Below are positions 13,345-49,451 of a stretch of 64,000 bases of DNA, piece after piece. Source of the DNA: an uncultured delta proteobacterium (GTDB lineage Bacteria; Desulfobacterota; Desulfobacteria; Desulfobacterales; JAFDCJ01); NCBI GenBank assembly GCA_963769935.1, contig CAVYNY010000011.1, forward strand, positions 416,001 through 480,000, read 5' to 3'. Both the position numbers and the translations under genes were made by a program. The notes beneath the pieces are model-generated. The model saw only the letters and a program-made list of their open reading frames with translations. It was not told where the DNA came from and did no database searches. The first letter of the stretch is position 1, and every line of letters begins with the position of its first letter.

Positions 13345-14808
13345 TCAGTCATCGTTTTTGCGGTTAATTGCCTGCGACAGCTTTTCACCGAGGGATCCTA
13401 TAGAGGATCTCTCGTCACCGGTAAATTTCTGCCAGTTGCGTTCGTCTTCTGTGTTGCCGGGTGCCAGAGTTATTTTACGGTTAGCGGTATCGATGACCTC
13501 TATGATCACCGGGATTGAGCCGCCTTCCTTTAACTTTTCGAACTCCGAGGATTTTTGCCCGCGGCTGATTTTCGATTTTGGCAGCAGCCCGGTGATGCCG
13601 GGCGCCAGGGTGATAAAAAAACCGAATTTTTCCTTTTTTTCAAGCACGCCTTCCAGGGATTGGCCGACAGCAAATTTTTCCTCAACGTCTATCCAGGGAT
13701 CGCCGGCAGCATCCCGAAGGCTTAAAGACAGGCGTCTTTTTGCCATATCAATTTCTTTGATGATGACCGAGACGGTCTCGCCGGCGCTGACAATGTCCTC
13801 AGGTTTCAGGACCCGTTTGGTATAACTCATCTCACTGATATGGACCAGTCCCTCAATGCCGGGGGCAACTTCCACGAAAGCGCCGAAATTGGCGCAGCGC
13901 GTGACTTTTCCCAGGATTTTGTCCCCTTCGTTAAATTGCCGGTCGGCCGTGTCCCAGGGATCAGCGGTGAGCTTTTTCATCGACAGGCTGATTTTCAGCA
14001 TACCGGGTTTTTTATCCGGCTCGATGCCGATAACTTTGACCCGCACAACATCGCCAATTTTGACGACGTCTTCCGGCTTGGCGACTTTTGACCAGCCGAG
14101 TTCGGATACATGCACCATGCCTTCCACCCCGTCCGACAGCTTCACAAAAACACCGTAGGGCATTGTTCGGGTAACCCGGCCTTCCATGACCCTGTCCACC
14201 TTCAATTTTTTATAAAATTCCTGGCGGGACTTTTCCTGTTGCCTGGCCAGCAGTGCACGCCTAGAAACAACAATATTTTTCCCCCTTTCTTCCAGGGTTA
14301 TAATTAAAAACTCCAGGGTCTGGCCGACGAAATCGGATGGCTCCTTGACAAAATTGATGTCCACTTGACTGATCGGACAAAATGCTCTTCGTTGCAGGAT
14401 TTCGACATGAAAACCACCTTTGCACGTGGCGGTGATTTTACCTTCCACCGGTGCCGCCTTGGCATAGGCCTCCTTTAACATCTCAATGCCGCCGATCCCC
14501 GACAAGGCTTTTGACAGCCGGATCTCCTCATCGGTTACCGCCACAACATACAGGTCCAGCATGTCGCCTTCTTCAACGGTCAGCTGCTGATTCTCATCTA
14601 ATAATTCGGCCTTGTCCACCACGCCGTCTATCTTGGTGCCGGTGTCGACAAAGACAGAATCCTTGCCGATGGAAATAATCTTGCCGTGAATTTTGTCGCC
14701 GATACTAATATCAGCGTCCATGCCGGGGCTATAAGCATCCAACAGCGCGGCAAAACTTTCTTCTTTTTCTTCCGCATTGTCATCATTATTATTTATATTT
14801 TCCGTCAT
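13345..14808 (-). CDS. rpsA: 30S ribosomal protein S1-like protein (multiple S1 domains)
   Basis: Repeated S1 motifs FGAFVEVAPGIEGLVHISEM and YGVFVKLSDGVEGMVHVSEL; may be a paralog. Confidence 0.8.
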   Translation of the reverse strand: MTENINNNDDNAEEKEESFAALLDAYSPGMDADISIGDKIHGKIISIGKDSVFVDTGTKIDGVVDKAELLDENQQLTVEEGDMLDLYVVAVTDEEIRLSKALSGIGGIEMLKEAYAKAAPVEGKITATCKGGFHVEILQRRAFCPISQVDINFVKEPSDFVGQTLEFLIITLEERGKNIVVSRRALLARQQEKSRQEFYKKLKVDRVMEGRVTRTMPYGVFVKLSDGVEGMVHVSELGWSKVAKPEDVVKIGDVVRVKVIGIEPDKKPGMLKISLSMKKLTADPWDTADRQFNEGDKILGKVTRCANFGAFVEVAPGIEGLVHISEMSYTKRVLKPEDIVSAGETVSVIIKEIDMAKRRLSLSLRDAAGDPWIDVEEKFAVGQSLEGVLEKKEKFGFFITLAPGITGLLPKSKISRGQKSSEFEKLKEGGSIPVIIEVIDTANRKITLAPGNTEDERNWQKFTGDERSSIGSLGEKLSQAINRKNDD

Positions 14809-39125: not shown

Positions 39126-39204
39126 AATATAGGGTCACCCATTAAAGGGCTTGTCAAGAGAAAAAACACCCCCTTGATCAAAAAAAATCAGTTTTTGATT
39201 GACA

Positions 39205-39315
39205 TTGATGGATTCCTAAAAAGCCCGTGCTCCTGGGTTAGCTTTTGAACGCAGGCGATGGTTTGTGCTGCTGATGGTCTTAAGATAAAGATCAGGCTTT
39301 TTAGGAATCCATCAA
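39205..39315. mobile_element. MITE-like element with perfect 21-bp terminal inverted repeats, inside the IS110 right end
   Basis: TTGATGGATTCCTAAAAAGCC (39205-39225) and GGCTTTTTAGGAATCCATCAA (39295-39315). Confidence 0.75.
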
Positions 39316-39399
39316 GTTTATAGCGCTCCTCAGCCCAGTGTCGCCTTTTCTCCTTTTCGCGCCCGCTATTTCTTTCTTATTGGCTTACGGTTAGTATTT

Positions 39400-39865
39400 T
39401 CTGATCCGCATCAGTCACCCATCAGGCTCAAGGCATTTGTGTTTTAAGCTCAAGGCTTGAAAACACCGCCCCTGGTCCGCTTGGGACCCCAGAAATTCTT
39501 CGGTTCCATACCGTGTTCAATTGGATGTGTTACAAATCTTGTGGTTATTAGCCAACCCCTTATGGACTCACGGCATAGGCGAATCGAGATCTAAAGCGAT
39601 CGCTGTCTGGTTATTATTGGCGAGTGCAGCAGCTGCCAATCACATCTAATGGTTTAGTGCCAACCCCTATACCGGCTCACTGCCGCACTCCAACTCTTAT
39701 CGCATACGCACCTGCCTTTTTAGTCGCTCAAATATTGGTGTCTTTTAAGGCCGATCGATGTATCATCGGCAATCAACTTTGATCGATTAGCTGGGTGCGG
39801 CAGCTGCCAATCAAAGCTGGTGGTTGAATACCAACCCCTTATCCGGTTGACTGCCGCACCCAAAC
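39400..39865 (-). ncRNA. Putative bridge/seek RNA with three target-loop-like hairpins and one donor-matching segment
   Basis: Three hairpins share AGGGGTTGG-N5-AACCA-N10; ATGGGTGAC at 39414-39422 is identical to the IS right junction at 39134-39142. Confidence 0.7.
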
Positions 39866-39868
39866 CGA

Positions 39869-40885
39869 TTAACTAAATAGCTTGTCCTCATCGAAGGCAA
39901 CCTGATCGCGCATGATGTAGTAAGAGGCCCGAGACAGCTTGTTGCTCAATGCCTTGATTGCTACCACATTCTTGCTTCTCGCCTTTTTGCTCTGATAAAA
40001 ACTGTGTGCCTTGGGACAATATCTTTTGGCAAAGTTGGCCGCCTCCACATAGGCCCAGGCCAGGTACTTGTTGCCATTTTTCTTGTTGTTCTCACCTTTT
40101 TTCTTGCCATTGGATATTCTCTTACTTTGCACACATCGACAGTAGGAAGAATAGTCACCAACTGTAGCAAAACGTCCAATATCCCCGACTTCCAGCATGA
40201 TGGTCAGCGCTAAAATCTTGCCTATCCCCGGAATCGTAAGCAACTTTGCAAATTCCTTGCGCAGCTTGGCCTGTGACATGACACGCTTTTCAATGCCTCT
40301 AATAATGTGCTTCAAAAATTCAATCGTCGCCCAACTGTTGGTGGCCATCAATACTAAATCCGGACAATCGAACAGATCTGCAACATCTATGGCGCTCAGT
40401 TTCTTGATTTCATTGTTGGATATCTTAAAACCCAGATTTCTGCTGACCATACTCTGCAGACTCAAGATCTGCGCCGTTCGCTGTCGCACAAATAAAAGCC
40501 TGCGGCGTAACAAATCCCTTACCGCTCGATTCTCCTTGGGGTAGATGTATCCTTCAGCCAGCAGGTTCAAGCGGTACATGTGCGCCAACCAAAATGCATC
40601 CCAGGGATCATCGGTATGCTTCAGTCCCTCGTATTGTTTGATTGCCGAGGGATTAGCCAAATGAACCTCGTAGCCATTGTCCTGCAGGCCGTCGACCATC
40701 CAATACCAATTGAACGTGGATTCGATTACCACCGCCTTAAGGTTTTCCTTAAACGGTTCCAGCGCCTTCAAGACTTCCTCCAGCCGGTTGCAATGCCGCT
40801 TGCCATAAAGCCTCTTATCGTTGCCGTCGATGATTCCAATAAAATTATTACTTGAATGCAAATCAATTCCAGCGTATGTTTCCAT
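39869..40885 (-). CDS. IS110-family DEDD recombinase/transposase
   Basis: YAGIDLH, VVIES, KHTDDPWDA, TIPGIG, ISNGKKKG (catalytic Ser region), KYLAWAYVEAA. Confidence 0.93.
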   Translation of the reverse strand: METYAGIDLHSSNNFIGIIDGNDKRLYGKRHCNRLEEVLKALEPFKENLKAVVIESTFNWYWMVDGLQDNGYEVHLANPSAIKQYEGLKHTDDPWDAFWLAHMYRLNLLAEGYIYPKENRAVRDLLRRRLLFVRQRTAQILSLQSMVSRNLGFKISNNEIKKLSAIDVADLFDCPDLVLMATNSWATIEFLKHIIRGIEKRVMSQAKLRKEFAKLLTIPGIGKILALTIMLEVGDIGRFATVGDYSSYCRCVQSKRISNGKKKGENNKKNGNKYLAWAYVEAANFAKRYCPKAHSFYQSKKARSKNVVAIKALSNKLSRASYYIMRDQVAFDEDKLFS

Positions 40886-41113
40886 GGGACACCTCCTAAA
40901 TCCTATAAAATTAATGTTAGACCCTTGTCTACTGGTTCCATAGCATATTTTGCTATGGATAGGGAGGTGTCCTTTCTCAAGCTCGGCAGGCTGTAGTGAG
41001 ATTTATCGCCAGCGGTCCGTAAGAAAATCTCACGCTTGACGAGCAATAACAGCTGAATGCAGGAAAAAAAGCAGTATCTATGATTTCCTGCCCTGTTGCT
41101 CTTTATATGTATA

Positions 41114-41176
41114 TCAAAGCTTGAATTGTGAATAATAATCAAAATTGTTCTACTATAATTCACTATTCAAGCCCCT
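41114..41176. repeat. REPIN-like inverted repeat, one arm of which is the IS110 target
   Basis: GCTTGAATTGTGAAT ... ATTCACTATTCAAGCCCC. Confidence 0.55.
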
Positions 41177-45655: not shown

Positions 45656-45710
45656 AGGGGGACATGGGGGTCGCATCTCAAAAAGGGGGACATGGGGGTC
45701 GCATCTCAAA
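45656..45710. repeat. Tandem duplication (28-bp period) of the RAYT element end
   Basis: AGGGGGACATGGGGGTCGCATCTCAAA occurs twice. Confidence 0.9.
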
Positions 45711-46678
45711 TATTAAGTATTTTCCTTCTGATTCGATCCTCCCGCCCCTTAAGCTTGCGATCCGTCTCAAGTTTTTTCGCGATCCGGTCATGCCGAGCCG
45801 CGATTCCAGCTCCGGAGATGTCGAACCGCCTGCCCAGGACGACACTGGTTTCTCCCGTCATTTCCCTGCAAAGATAAATCGCCACATCCCGGGCTAAATT
45901 CCTCTTTTTCCCTTTTTGTAGGATGCTTTCTATCCCGCAACCGAATTCGTCGGAAACCGCTTGAATAAGATCATCGGGCGTTGGGCGGGGTTTCAGGATT
46001 TTCAGTTGGGGGATCTCCTGGCTGTTCGATTCCTTGCTTAAAAATGTCTTCTTCACCCAGTTTACGAAATCGACTCGCCCCAAAACAACACCGCCTACGA
46101 CGTCATCGGACGGATTCTCAATCTTTATGTTTTCGACCGACTCGACAAATTCACGGTATCTTTTTTTCGCGATGTCTCCTGTCCTCTCCGAACAGCGACA
46201 ATAACCAGTCCGTCTCCAGCCATTCCGGAGACTCAACATAGCCGCTTAAAGCCCGGTAGCTGCTCCATGGATAGTCTCTGCAATGTTCAACCATCCCCGC
46301 CCGCACCGGATTCAGATGGATATATCGCGACAGGTGCTTTAAATATTCATCCGCGTCCACCAGCACGGCTTTGAAGCGCCCTTGGAACAGATGACCGAAG
46401 CGTCTTCGTTTGCGATTGAAATACACCGAATAACCGACGTTGATCCATTTGATCGCCTGACTCAGGTTCGCATGGGGAGTTTCTATCAAAAAGTGATAAT
46501 GCGTGCTCATCAGGCAAAAGGTATGCACCTTGATTCCGTATCGTTTCACCGCCTCGCCGACATATTCCAAGAACTTTTCCCGGTCCCGCTCGCTCCTATA
46601 TATATTCATTCCCGTGTTTCCGCGATTCATCACGTGATAGAAAGCACCCGGGAATTCTATTCTTAACGGCCGCGCCAT
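45706..46678 (-). pseudogene. RAYT-like Y1 (HUH) transposase with C-terminal DnaA_C-like HTH, frameshifted near 46178
   Basis: MARPLR, YHVMNRG, THYH, GHLFQGRFK, YIHLNP, YPWSS; C-terminal ARDVAIYLCRE. Confidence 0.85.
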
Positions 46679-46763
46679 TCAAAAATACCTTTTTGTTTCG
46701 CTAAAAAGCATCTTCTTTTGTTTTTCGCACGCTATCTTAACGGCATGGCCTTGTCAATACTTT

Positions 46764-49022
46764 GTAGAGTAGAACATCGGTGCAGTGGCTGCAGGCGTCG
46801 GCGGCATCTCTGCCGATTTCCCGGCAGACCTCAGTCCGACTACCATACCTTCCTTCCCTTAGTCCCCTCGTCGAACCGGACGTCGGGTTTTCCCCGGTAC
46901 GGCTCACCGACGACCTTCCCCATGTGTTTATCAGTAACCGTTGCCGTTGAATTACAGTGACTAACCGAACTGGTATAATCCCAGTCGAACAACTAAATTG
47001 TTGTGGACTCTCCAAGTGCCCCTCGATCGATCACTGTACTTCCGCTTCAGGAATATTCGCAGCCGTTCGCGGACAAAGGCATTGAGCTTGCGAAGCCGTT
47101 TGAGCACCGGTCTTGTCGCTTTGTGATAATTGTTCCAACCCCGTATTACCGGTGTCAGCTCTTTTATCAACTCCTCCAGCGATAGACTATAGCGTCGCCC
47201 AATGACTTCCTTCACTCGTTGCCTGATGCGGCCCATCGAACGCTCTGAAGGCCATATTGCGCAGAACTGCTTTGATTTCGAGTTCTTCTTGCGCACCGGA
47301 CACAGACGCAAATGCACGCCGAGAAAATCAAACCCGTCTTTCGCTTTAACCATACGCGTTTTATCCGGGTGCAGCTTCAAGCCAAGACGTCCCAGCATCT
47401 GCTCCACCTGCTTTTTAACCTGCTTTCCGTTACGCCACAGCAAGATAACAAAATCATCCGCATATCTTACCAGTGTTCCTGGAATTCCCGACATCTGGAA
47501 CATTTTGTCAAACGAGTGTAGATAGATATTGCTCAGCAACGGTGAAATTACACCACCTTGCGGAGTTCCCAGCCCGTTCGTTTCGATATATTTGCCCTCT
47601 TCCATGACCCCGGCTTCCAACCACATGCGAATTAACTTTAAAACACGCGCATCAGCGATGCGGCGTTCAACCAGTTCCAGTAGAATATCCTGGCGAATAT
47701 TGTCGAAAAATCCCGTTATATCGGCGTCAAAAACGATGCGCTGACCTTTGAAGGTAATCCTGCGTTCTATTATACGGATCGCGTCATGGGCGCTTCGCCC
47801 CGGACGAAATCCGTGAGAACAATCCAAAAAATTGGCCTCAAATATCGGCTCGATTACCAGTTTGGTCGCCATCTGGCAAACGCGGTCAAAAATAACCGGA
47901 ACCCCAAGCGGCCTTTTCTCAGGTTTGCCCGGTTTGTCGATATAGCACCGCAGCACTGGCTGCGGCCGGTACCGCTTGCTTTTTAATTGCTCGCGGACTT
48001 CCGCCAGAAATTGATCCACACCAATTACATCCTCGATGTATTCAAAATCCTGCCGATCGACTCCAGGTGCACCCTTGTTGGCCTTGACGCGCTTCCAGGC
48101 CTCCAAAACAACATCTTCACGATAGATCTTATCGTAAAGAGCCCCGAATCTCCTATCCAGCGACTGCTTCGCTGCATGGGACAGTTTAGACTGCAAGTCA
48201 GAAACTTTGTTCCGCACGTTCATAGCTCCTTGAGCACTCATGCCTTCTTACTGTTAACAGATAGAAATGCAACTGGTGTTTAAACCGATGATGATTCGGG
48301 ACAGTTCGAGTTCTTGGCCCGGTGGTCGCACCGTTCCCCAACGACTGCCGGTTGGGTTTTGTTAAAGCGGGGTCCCCGTAAACCCGCACCTTATCCTCAC
48401 CCTCAAATCTATCCACTGTTCCGCATTTCAACTCACACCCTAAACGCGGTCGAAGTATGGCCCCACGCTCAGGACAGGTTATGTTGTCCTGCCCGTCGTC
48501 ACTTCCAGGCCACTCCGACTTCCCTACGCCCATCACCTCCATCTTGCCGGTTTCACCCGACTTGATACAGGCTTACCGCAGGCGGAGACCTGCGGAGACG
48601 CTGGGATCTCAGGTCTTTCCTCCATTATCTGTCACCGCATGCCGTTGGCCTTACCCCGGGTCCCTACCAGGTGCGCATACCCTTTGCTTCCCTGGTAGCT
48701 CTGGCCTTCTCCCAAATTATAGAGGATCGGCGGGTATCCCTGCGATGCAGGGTTTATCCCTCAATCGGACTCTCCCAGCTATAGCCGTCCGATCACATCT
48801 TACGAGGCTGCACCATTCGCGTCATGCTACGGCCTGCGGTTTTGGCCGGCACCCCTGACTGGGTAAAACCCGCATATCCTGCGAGCCGTCTCGGTACCGT
48901 GTCGGGGCAAGTTCAGCCCGCGTGTTACCACGCGAACCCGCCCTCTGCCTTCATATCCATAAGGGCAACTGATATGATAACCTCCTTTCAGGTTACTAGA
49001 TAATGGTCTCGCGACCTCGTAC
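46764..49022 (-). mobile_element. Group II intron (EBS1/EBS2 type, RT without endonuclease domain)
   Basis: 5' end GTACG at 49022; domain V GAGCCGTACCGGGGAAAACCCGACGTCCGGTTC (46905-46873); 3' end CTACTCTAC at 46764. Confidence 0.88.
46961..48241 (-). CDS. ltrA: Group II intron reverse transcriptase/maturase
   Basis: NKGAPGVD, RPLGVP, SHGFRPGRS, GTPQGGVISPLL, RYADD, GFDFLG, domain X IRGWNNY. Confidence 0.93.
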   Translation of the reverse strand: MSAQGAMNVRNKVSDLQSKLSHAAKQSLDRRFGALYDKIYREDVVLEAWKRVKANKGAPGVDRQDFEYIEDVIGVDQFLAEVREQLKSKRYRPQPVLRCYIDKPGKPEKRPLGVPVIFDRVCQMATKLVIEPIFEANFLDCSHGFRPGRSAHDAIRIIERRITFKGQRIVFDADITGFFDNIRQDILLELVERRIADARVLKLIRMWLEAGVMEEGKYIETNGLGTPQGGVISPLLSNIYLHSFDKMFQMSGIPGTLVRYADDFVILLWRNGKQVKKQVEQMLGRLGLKLHPDKTRMVKAKDGFDFLGVHLRLCPVRKKNSKSKQFCAIWPSERSMGRIRQRVKEVIGRRYSLSLEELIKELTPVIRGWNNYHKATRPVLKRLRKLNAFVRERLRIFLKRKYSDRSRGTWRVHNNLVVRLGLYQFG

Positions 49023-49451
49023 ATAATTTAGATGCGACCCTGGAGACCTTCATCAAGCAGGATATTCAATATCGCCGGCAGGCCGGCAATCATTGAACCC
49101 GGCGCTTGCCGGACCGGGACGTTTATCATTCGGCCGGTTTCATTTTTTTCCGATTTTAAGAGTGGTTGACCGTCAATCGCTCCAATAGGCGATTTTCAAT
49201 CGACGCCGGCGAGTGTTTCAATCCCCAGAAACCCGAACTCCCTGTTTTGCCCGGGCGCCTTTCCCCAACCATTTGCTGTCAATTAACCGTGCCCCACATT
49301 TCAACCTTGCCCAAAAAAAATCAATCTGGTTATCGGAAATGACCAAGTCAGAGGGGTGACGTCCATTTTCTCCCCCGCCCTCGGTTCCTCCCGCCAGGCA
49401 AGGGAAGCAATATTACCCCGCGCTTGGGCTTTGCAGATAACCGGGAAGATA

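Follow-up and report, generated by a model that had tools for sequence, protein, structure and literature searches.

When several hairpins resembling the target-binding loop of a bridge RNA follow an IS110-family recombinase gene, are they equivalent guides for several targets, and does the element use more than one of them? The question is raised by a gene in the window (the whole 64,000-nt stretch of DNA analysed), whose stop codon is followed directly, on the minus strand, by three hairpins, here called A, B and C, that share a constant scaffold and differ in a 10-nt segment. A first-pass annotation had described them accurately and had read them as a multiplexed guide array aimed at several REP variants. 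That reading survives in part: there are two target loops, of which A is clearly dominant and B is likely used, and at most two in any of the complete right ends compared, and the targets are terminal inverted repeats of TIRtrons, not REPs proper.

An IS1111-type element with defined ends

The element spans 1,982 bp, from TGA at 41116-41114 to TGA at 39137-39135, and the genome holds three full copies, on contigs C11, C39 and C15, as well as remnants on C10 and C13. The three copies diverge just outside 41116 on the left and at TGA 39135-39137, the true right end; the full copies each depart from that in the window at a single base, not counting CGA in place of TGA at the right core of the C15 copy. 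An assembly artefact was ruled out by the three copies, identical but for these bases, and by dozens of relatives.

The 338-aa ORF carries the PF01548 and PF02371 domains, and its residues E55, D93, D96 and S258 align in register with IS621 and ISCro4, D8 being read off the sequence. The roles of E55, D93, D96 and S258 (DEDD and catalytic serine) are assigned after the corresponding IS621 residues. The protein combines a DEDD RuvC-like domain with a Tnp20 domain bearing the catalytic serine, as expected of the IS110 superfamily. The features of the element and its junctions, apart from the loops, are as follows.

41117-41123, minus strand: left target half CAAGCTT, lying beyond the element at the end of a TIRtron-type terminal repeat of class A; that repeat is empty at four other sites in the genome
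40886-41116, minus strand: left end, made up of the TGA core (41116-41114), the right-donor half and the left sub-terminal repeat, followed by the leader; the motif is kept in relatives
39869-40885, minus strand: IS110/IS1111 DEDD recombinase
39205-39315, no strand assigned: pair of perfect 21-bp inverted repeats, a MITE-like passenger in the right end, variable among relatives
39135-39158, minus strand: right terminus, with a -35-like TTGACA, right sub-terminal repeat, left-donor half ATGGG and core TGA (39137-39135)
39129-39134, minus strand: right target half CCCTAT, outside the element

The right end, 3' of the gene, measures 734 nt (39135-39868; about 730 nt) and the left end 231 nt. Sub-terminal inverted repeats, about 11-13 bp (range 7-17) in IS1111 elements, are imperfect here (TAAAGAGC versus TAAAGGGC, extended by CAT with one indel) and a perfect 8 bp in many relatives. 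In A, B and C alike, the complement of the top strand lies 5' of the match to the bottom strand, a GGGGT guide preceding the guide identical to the flank. Judged from sequence, this guide order, the short left end, the long right end and the imperfect sub-terminal repeats are traits of the IS1111 group as it has been described (PMC11187229; PMC11208160).

The passenger repeats enclose 69 nt; similar pairs occur in L007, L061, L063 and L066 and are absent from other relatives. On contig C10 of the same genome (G000, about 14335-14700), the remnant of a relative is cut inside a B-type loop and joined to unrelated sequence. The latter may resemble an integron cassette end.

Three target-like loops of two types, and a donor loop

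Over 71 nt, A and B share 79% identity, and a 31-nt core present three times is common to A, B and C. The 481-nt loop region folds better than its shuffled versions (z -2.99; 1 of 100 shuffles as good). Rfam held no family match for the region, and four weak miRNA matches, which scored far below the gathering score, were dismissed as chance hairpins; terminator or REP hairpins were ruled out because the internal guides track the flanks. The loops are arranged as follows.

39792-39862, minus strand: target loop A, with right-target guide 39842-39834 and left-target guide plus core 39820-39811 (CCAGCTT-TGA); it matches the C11 and C39 flanks and is the dominant guide among relatives
39622-39690, minus strand: target loop B, a duplicate of A, with right-target guide 39671-39663 and left-target guide plus core 39649-39640 (TTAGATG-TGA); it matches the C15 flank and a flank in metagenome run X1, and its stems covary
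39506-39577, minus strand: loop C, conserved and target-like, of a second type, whose nearly invariant guide, CAAGATT-TGT (39541-39532), mismatches each target class at one position
39406-39501, minus strand: donor-binding multi-branch loop D, with left-donor guide ATGGG-TGA (39422-39415) and a candidate right-donor guide near 39500-39492, an assignment that is inferred

As the first-pass annotation had observed, the 10-nt segment of A matches the left flank of the element at 9 of 10 positions and that of B matches the repeat at 49028-49037 at 9 of 10. It had also noted, correctly, that a fourth segment, 39422-39414, is identical to the right-junction sequence. The segment itself is internal, some 280 nt before the true right end, because the three copies share sequence on to TGA 39137-39135; it repeats the last bases and core of the right end and reads as the left-donor guide, in line with the donor role that had been suggested. 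Left-donor guide and core match the joined ends and covary, and the candidate right-donor guide matches with one to two mismatches. The window element has two target loops (type T), C and D, and not one target loop and one donor loop.

To set this arrangement among its relatives, we gathered 76 genome and 80 metagenome loci and added more from genome searches, 289 locus records in all. Loop types were told apart by profile searches, and the census covers 89 distinct complete right ends at 58% protein identity or more, degenerate partial T matches not being counted. The layout is fixed: a programmable target loop T, the conserved target-like loop C and the donor loop D. T and C occur together in 50 ends and two T loops with C in 35; three lack both and one lacks C, and no end (0/89) has three T loops. 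Type T, to which A and B belong, ends in the core plus TTGG inside a long stem, and type C has another stem and usually TGT. On this census A and B are true paralogous guides and C is a different, nearly invariant loop, which adjoins D in 85 of the 89 ends.

A quick tree built from 99 proteins places the two-T ends in three subclades, which have SH-aLRT support of 96, 100 and 99 and within which one-T members are nested. Duplication of T takes 13 changes on this tree, at least five of them forced, which is compatible with a single or a repeated origin; guides swap between first and second position, and B has been lost or broken in some relatives (L085, L125). No relatives were found on viral contigs, and a phylum-wide pattern search gave matches in 12 of 401 genomes and no further two-T loci. 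Extra left ends in G503 and G508 proved to be broken or rearranged copies without linked T loops, and an apparent A/B split in G508 was not counted.

A distant clade (50-56% identity; L178-L185, L196-L205) keeps the same T, C and D layout with core TGC and a right junction of TGC-CAA or similar (a GCCAA-type right half). There, the 5' guide of T and the core of D (TGA to TGC) change together with the right junction, which fixes the roles of right-target guide and donor core; the earlier proposal that the shared GGGGT stretch pairs with the right target half is borne out by the same change. Within the main clade no position showed significant right-target covariation, and this half is nearly constant.

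Two groups of relatives depart from the layout. In Scalindua (L039-L044, L072-L074), a degenerate first hairpin with an intact outer stem and A/T-rich guides precedes a working T loop; it is either a decayed T or a T aimed at some A/T-rich site. In a single MAG (G301), four copies (L003, L004, L005, L067) share a deletion that removes T and C and keeps D, have a stop in the gene and lie at different right flanks; the left flank of L004 equals loop B of L017, another element of the same genome, at 7 of 7 positions. These copies suggest that target loops may act in trans.

The targets are terminal repeats of TIRtrons

Read outward, target sites carry GGGGTC[AG] in 52 of 71 cases and the strict GGGGWSAS in 15 of 71. 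Left flanks contain a Y1 transposase gene in 9 of 63 cases and right flanks in none of 56; of 74 left flanks, 14 have an inverted partner arm. By these features the targets are terminal repeats of Y1-transposase TIRtrons (PMC3733652; 10.1101/279083) and of their miniatures. The insertion sequence enters a few bases inside the TIRtron terminus, facing inward. One neighbouring TIRtron in the window carries two empty targets.

49028-49041, plus strand: right terminal repeat of the TIRtron, an empty target of class B; on contig C15 this element occupies the corresponding repeat
45694-45720, minus strand: left terminal repeat of that TIRtron, likewise an empty target of class B (Y1 gene 46151-46678, Bac_DnaA_C ORF 45706-46239)

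In this TIRtron (45656-49041) the Y1 gene is split into the overlapping ORFs 46151-46678 and 45706-46239, a group II intron RT (46961-48241) sits between the gene and the right repeat, and the left repeat is tandemly duplicated near 45656-45712. The A-type site occupied in the window is one arm of a miniature inverted-repeat element of about 55-70 bp (41119-41172), whose far arm misses part of the terminus.

The same element occupies A-type and B-type sites

The C11 and C39 copies have the A-type left flank CAAGCTT, of which A spells 6 of 7 bases. The C15 copy follows the B-type flank TAAGATG, of which B spells 6 of 7 and which has two mismatches to A and one non-wobble mismatch to C. The 1,210 nt to its left are 98% identical to window positions 47825-49034, so that this copy occupies a second copy of the repeat at 49028-49037. 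Run X1, from another sample, adds a second B-type site occupied by this element: one of its contigs, equivalent to 39532-41116 with a single difference over 1,585 nt, spans A, B and the gene and then enters a TAAGATG flank other than the one on C15. In run X3 a contig extends along the A-type flank for 17 nt past the left end and stops short of the loops. The first-pass prediction that flanks fall into classes matching A, B and C is thus upheld in this genome for A and B, and none of its three full copies lies at an AGATT (C-type) site.

Runs X1 and X2 also contain an element-free allele that joins at the right core (window 39137/41124) without the 7-nt left target. It was rejected as a clean empty site because the left target half is missing, and represents either imprecise loss or a target-less allele.

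Loop A tracks the insertion site, and B probably accounts for part of the remainder

Which loop matches the occupied site was asked of 92 non-redundant records, 40 two-T and 52 one-T, having a left end, a loop C and readable guides; the rest of the 289 were duplicate, truncated or too diverged. An exact match refers to the last five flank bases, and expected values come from shuffled flanks. In one-T loci T was exact in 25 of 48 (7.1 shuffled) and guide positions -5 to -1 each tracked the target above shuffles; C was exact in 6 of 48 (4.05 shuffled, not significant). In two-T loci A was exact in 21 of 40 (5.2 shuffled), and these comparisons establish A as the predicted site guide.

The case for B is conditional on A. 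Taken alone, B was exact in 7 of 40 two-T loci (4.23 shuffled, p 0.10, not significant), and A or B in 28 of 40 (9.39 shuffled, p 1e-4). Where A was not exact, B was in 7 of 19 (2.56 shuffled, p 0.003), or 6 of 16 after dereplication (1.99 shuffled, p 0.005). The core-adjacent base points the same way: A cannot pair there in 9 of 40 two-T loci, and in 7 of these B carries the flank base (3.0 shuffled, p 0.009). Such failures number 4 of 52 in one-T loci; within the AG clade they are 9 of 39 two-T versus 3 of 40 one-T (p 0.052, borderline). The pair AGACT/AGATG occurs in both orders, each seen with both flank classes. A pooled class test gave 7/30 versus 5/239, with rows reused across classes, and its p-value was not relied on. 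Bearing in mind that all p-values overstate significance because the loci are related, we consider independent use of B as a guide likely and its statistical support modest; we infer that A is used about three times as often as B.

The main rival to this interpretation is relaxed or half-match insertion: only A would choose sites, B would be a folded auxiliary, and non-A insertions would arise from mismatch tolerance, from loop C, or from a half-match via the GACCCC half common to all classes. The exact matches of A and the p of 0.10 for B alone are compatible with it. When G-T/U wobble was allowed in the 40 two-T loci, A was the only compatible loop in 15, B in just 3 (C15, L077, L210; 4.35 shuffled), B or C fitted in 6 and no loop in 4. 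Unexplained insertions also occur without any B, since T meets a hard mismatch in 11 of the 52 one-T flanks, of which two are AGATG. Among host candidate repeats the AGATG class is the commonest (11 of 33 candidate sites), so relaxed insertion would often land there anyway, and half-match insertion has been reported for IS621 (10.64898/2026.08.31.748434). However, the conditional tests favour B, and C, the other loop to which such insertions might be owed, is never the sole compatible loop (0 of 40 two-T loci; 3.7 shuffled).

What weighs further against an auxiliary B is its conservation. Across the three stems of 45 distinct B modules, pairing is kept in 94.8% of cells, and 11 of 18 pairs have changed on both sides, a covariation reached in none of 500 shuffles, with slid controls at 25-53%; two-sided changes are absent from the 3-bp stem at the apex, part of which may be guide. 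B retains AG, the core and the GGGGT guide, and guides are drawn from about ten related words. As the first reading of the locus had proposed, the target loop has been duplicated and reprogrammed, and the covariation in B that it had called for exists: of 46 distinct guide sets, 44 have unlike guides in A and B (2 have the same, versus 5.6 shuffled, p 0.053), which argues against simple dosage. That B keeps its structure, core and real target words while being unlike A requires selection on a guide, and we therefore regard site choice by A alone as unlikely.

Are the three loops, then, equivalent guides for three repeat classes, as first supposed? C shares the guide grammar and order of A and B, tracks the target at some positions across the clade, and, in 2 of 40 two-T loci and 3 of 52 one-T loci, is the one loop that matches exactly. 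These points are outweighed by its different stem and core word (TGT), its fixed place beside D, its near-invariance (AGATT in 63 of 85, with T at position -2 in all 45 one-T loci), its lack of enrichment in one-T loci and the want of any copy here at an AGATT site. We consider equivalence improbable and abandon the view of C as a third programmable guide of the same kind.

A last alternative holds B to be a spare for evolving specificities or the memory of an earlier target, with B-matching flanks that predate a guide swap or came via loops in trans. The positional swaps on the tree lend it some colour, as do the loop-less copies of G301, which lie at several sites and suggest supply in trans. 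Against it, the full copies differ so little from the window copy outside the junction core that A- and B-type insertions must be recent and owed to one shared guide set, and no second complete loop set with AGATG turned up in a search of the whole genome, only the remnant cut inside its loop. This is the least probable of the readings considered.

Taken together, and as far as sequence can tell, the arrangement is real: a bridge/seek RNA system of the IS1111 kind, whose target loop has been duplicated and reprogrammed and which carries a conserved loop C apart from it. The reading that we prefer, with a probability of about 0.65, is that of a natural two-guide bridge RNA by which the element would land at either of two target classes, A being the major and B the minor guide.

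A model for two guides sharing one donor loop

Under the two-guide reading, excision to a circle would join the element's ends, and the junction would place TTGACA 17 nt before TATACA (4 of 6), a candidate promoter; on this strand of the linear element, a scan for promoters gave no hit. A transcript from the circle junction would run through the gene and the loops, and T hairpins of 70-90 nt (A and B) would be cut from it, like seekRNAs. A or B could each be loaded on the recombinase and paired with D, because target and donor loops bind separate recombinase dimers and function when split (10.1101/2025.05.14.653916; PMC13626964); the circle would then insert at either of two TIRtron terminal-repeat classes. 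Split target and donor loops of IS622 work, and work better (10.1101/2025.05.14.653916), and target-loop-only RNA is the main bound species for CazIS110-1 (10.1101/2025.10.25.684509) and for IS1111 seekRNAs (PMC11187229). RNA runs X16-X19 gave few contigs over B, C and D (depth 2-27, mostly from relatives) and are uninformative on strand, ends and level.

Loop C likely serves another step. As RNA, its guide can reach AGAYY by wobble pairing, is a single mismatch away from AGCTT as well as from AGATG, and could thus hold the flanks of the element at any occupied site. Since guides that favour insertion disfavour excision (PMC13626964), we hypothesize that C, beside D, serves excision or second-strand transfer. 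The full scheme, in which one transcript would yield two target RNAs, programmed independently and served by a single donor loop, with which the element would chase diversifying TIRtron ends, with a degenerate third loop for a separate step at the occupied site and T loops as free modules steering loop-less copies in trans, is a tentative one, and we give it slightly less than even odds.

Relation to known systems

The closest described relatives are the IS1111 seekRNA elements ISEc11, ISKpn4, ISPst6 and ISPa11 (Siddiquee et al. 2024, PMC11187229), which share with the present element a DEDD recombinase of about 340 aa, a 3' non-coding region, sub-terminal repeats, a top-strand complement 5' of the bottom-strand match, a hairpin unit of 70-100 nt and natural reprogramming. 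They differ in having one target-matching unit in a 145-170-nt long RNA, whereas about 460 nt here hold two reprogrammed T loops, C and a donor loop. The bridge RNA recombinases IS621 and ISCro4 (IS622) are likewise described (PMC11208160, PMC13626964, 10.1101/2025.05.14.653916) as having target and donor loops that read both strands round a short core and can act as separate RNAs, with a -35-like hexamer in the right end; by contrast, they carry one target and one donor loop, 5' of the gene and in opposite guide order. A donor guide in a multi-branch loop, as here, is noted for IS1111 orthologues (PMC11208160). Split or multiple target loops, natural here, were engineered for IS621/ISCro4.

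A natural element with two target loops was not found in the literature covered, including PMC11208160 (text and supplements), PMC13604230 and PMC12288879; the coverage was of text, and figures, notably Extended Data Fig. 10c of PMC11208160 with its three IS1111 structures, preprint supplements and subscription papers may bear on the point. Nor was one found in the available parts of 10.64898/2026.10.21.760802, 10.1101/2025.10.25.684509 and 10.64898/2026.08.14.744561. Bridge and seek RNAs being described as one target and one donor loop, two differently programmed T loops show how a target may be gained without losing the old one. The two-T element would be a ready scaffold for multiplexed insertion, a future goal in a 2026 review (PMC13604230). 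With loop C, two questions become accessible to test: how guides that favour insertion are reconciled with excision in IS1111 elements, and what purpose the long seekRNA has.

TIGR-Tas systems and CRISPR guide arrays also place a constant scaffold with variable guides in tandem beside an effector gene. Here, however, the programmable units number at most two and arose by duplication and point change, and the effector is a recombinase; there is no sign of guide acquisition, and with three T loops in 0 of 89 ends the array is not open-ended in the CRISPR or TIGR manner. The IS1111-family elements IS4321 and IS5075, reportedly described by Partridge and Hall in 2003, are said to lie in Tn21 terminal inverted repeats at a fixed position and orientation. 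They too parasitise the terminal repeat of another mobile element; in our case, TIRtron ends are identified as a niche for an IS1111 clade, and the target is a diversified repeat family (GGGGWSAS type; PMC3733652 and 10.1101/279083), a diversity that gives reason to carry two guides.

Another form of spread is hinted at by three relatives, L093-L095, which have the same right flank and near-identical left flanks, L094 and L095 lying 5.9 kb apart on one metagenome contig. This arrangement suggests amplification of a segment bounded by the element.
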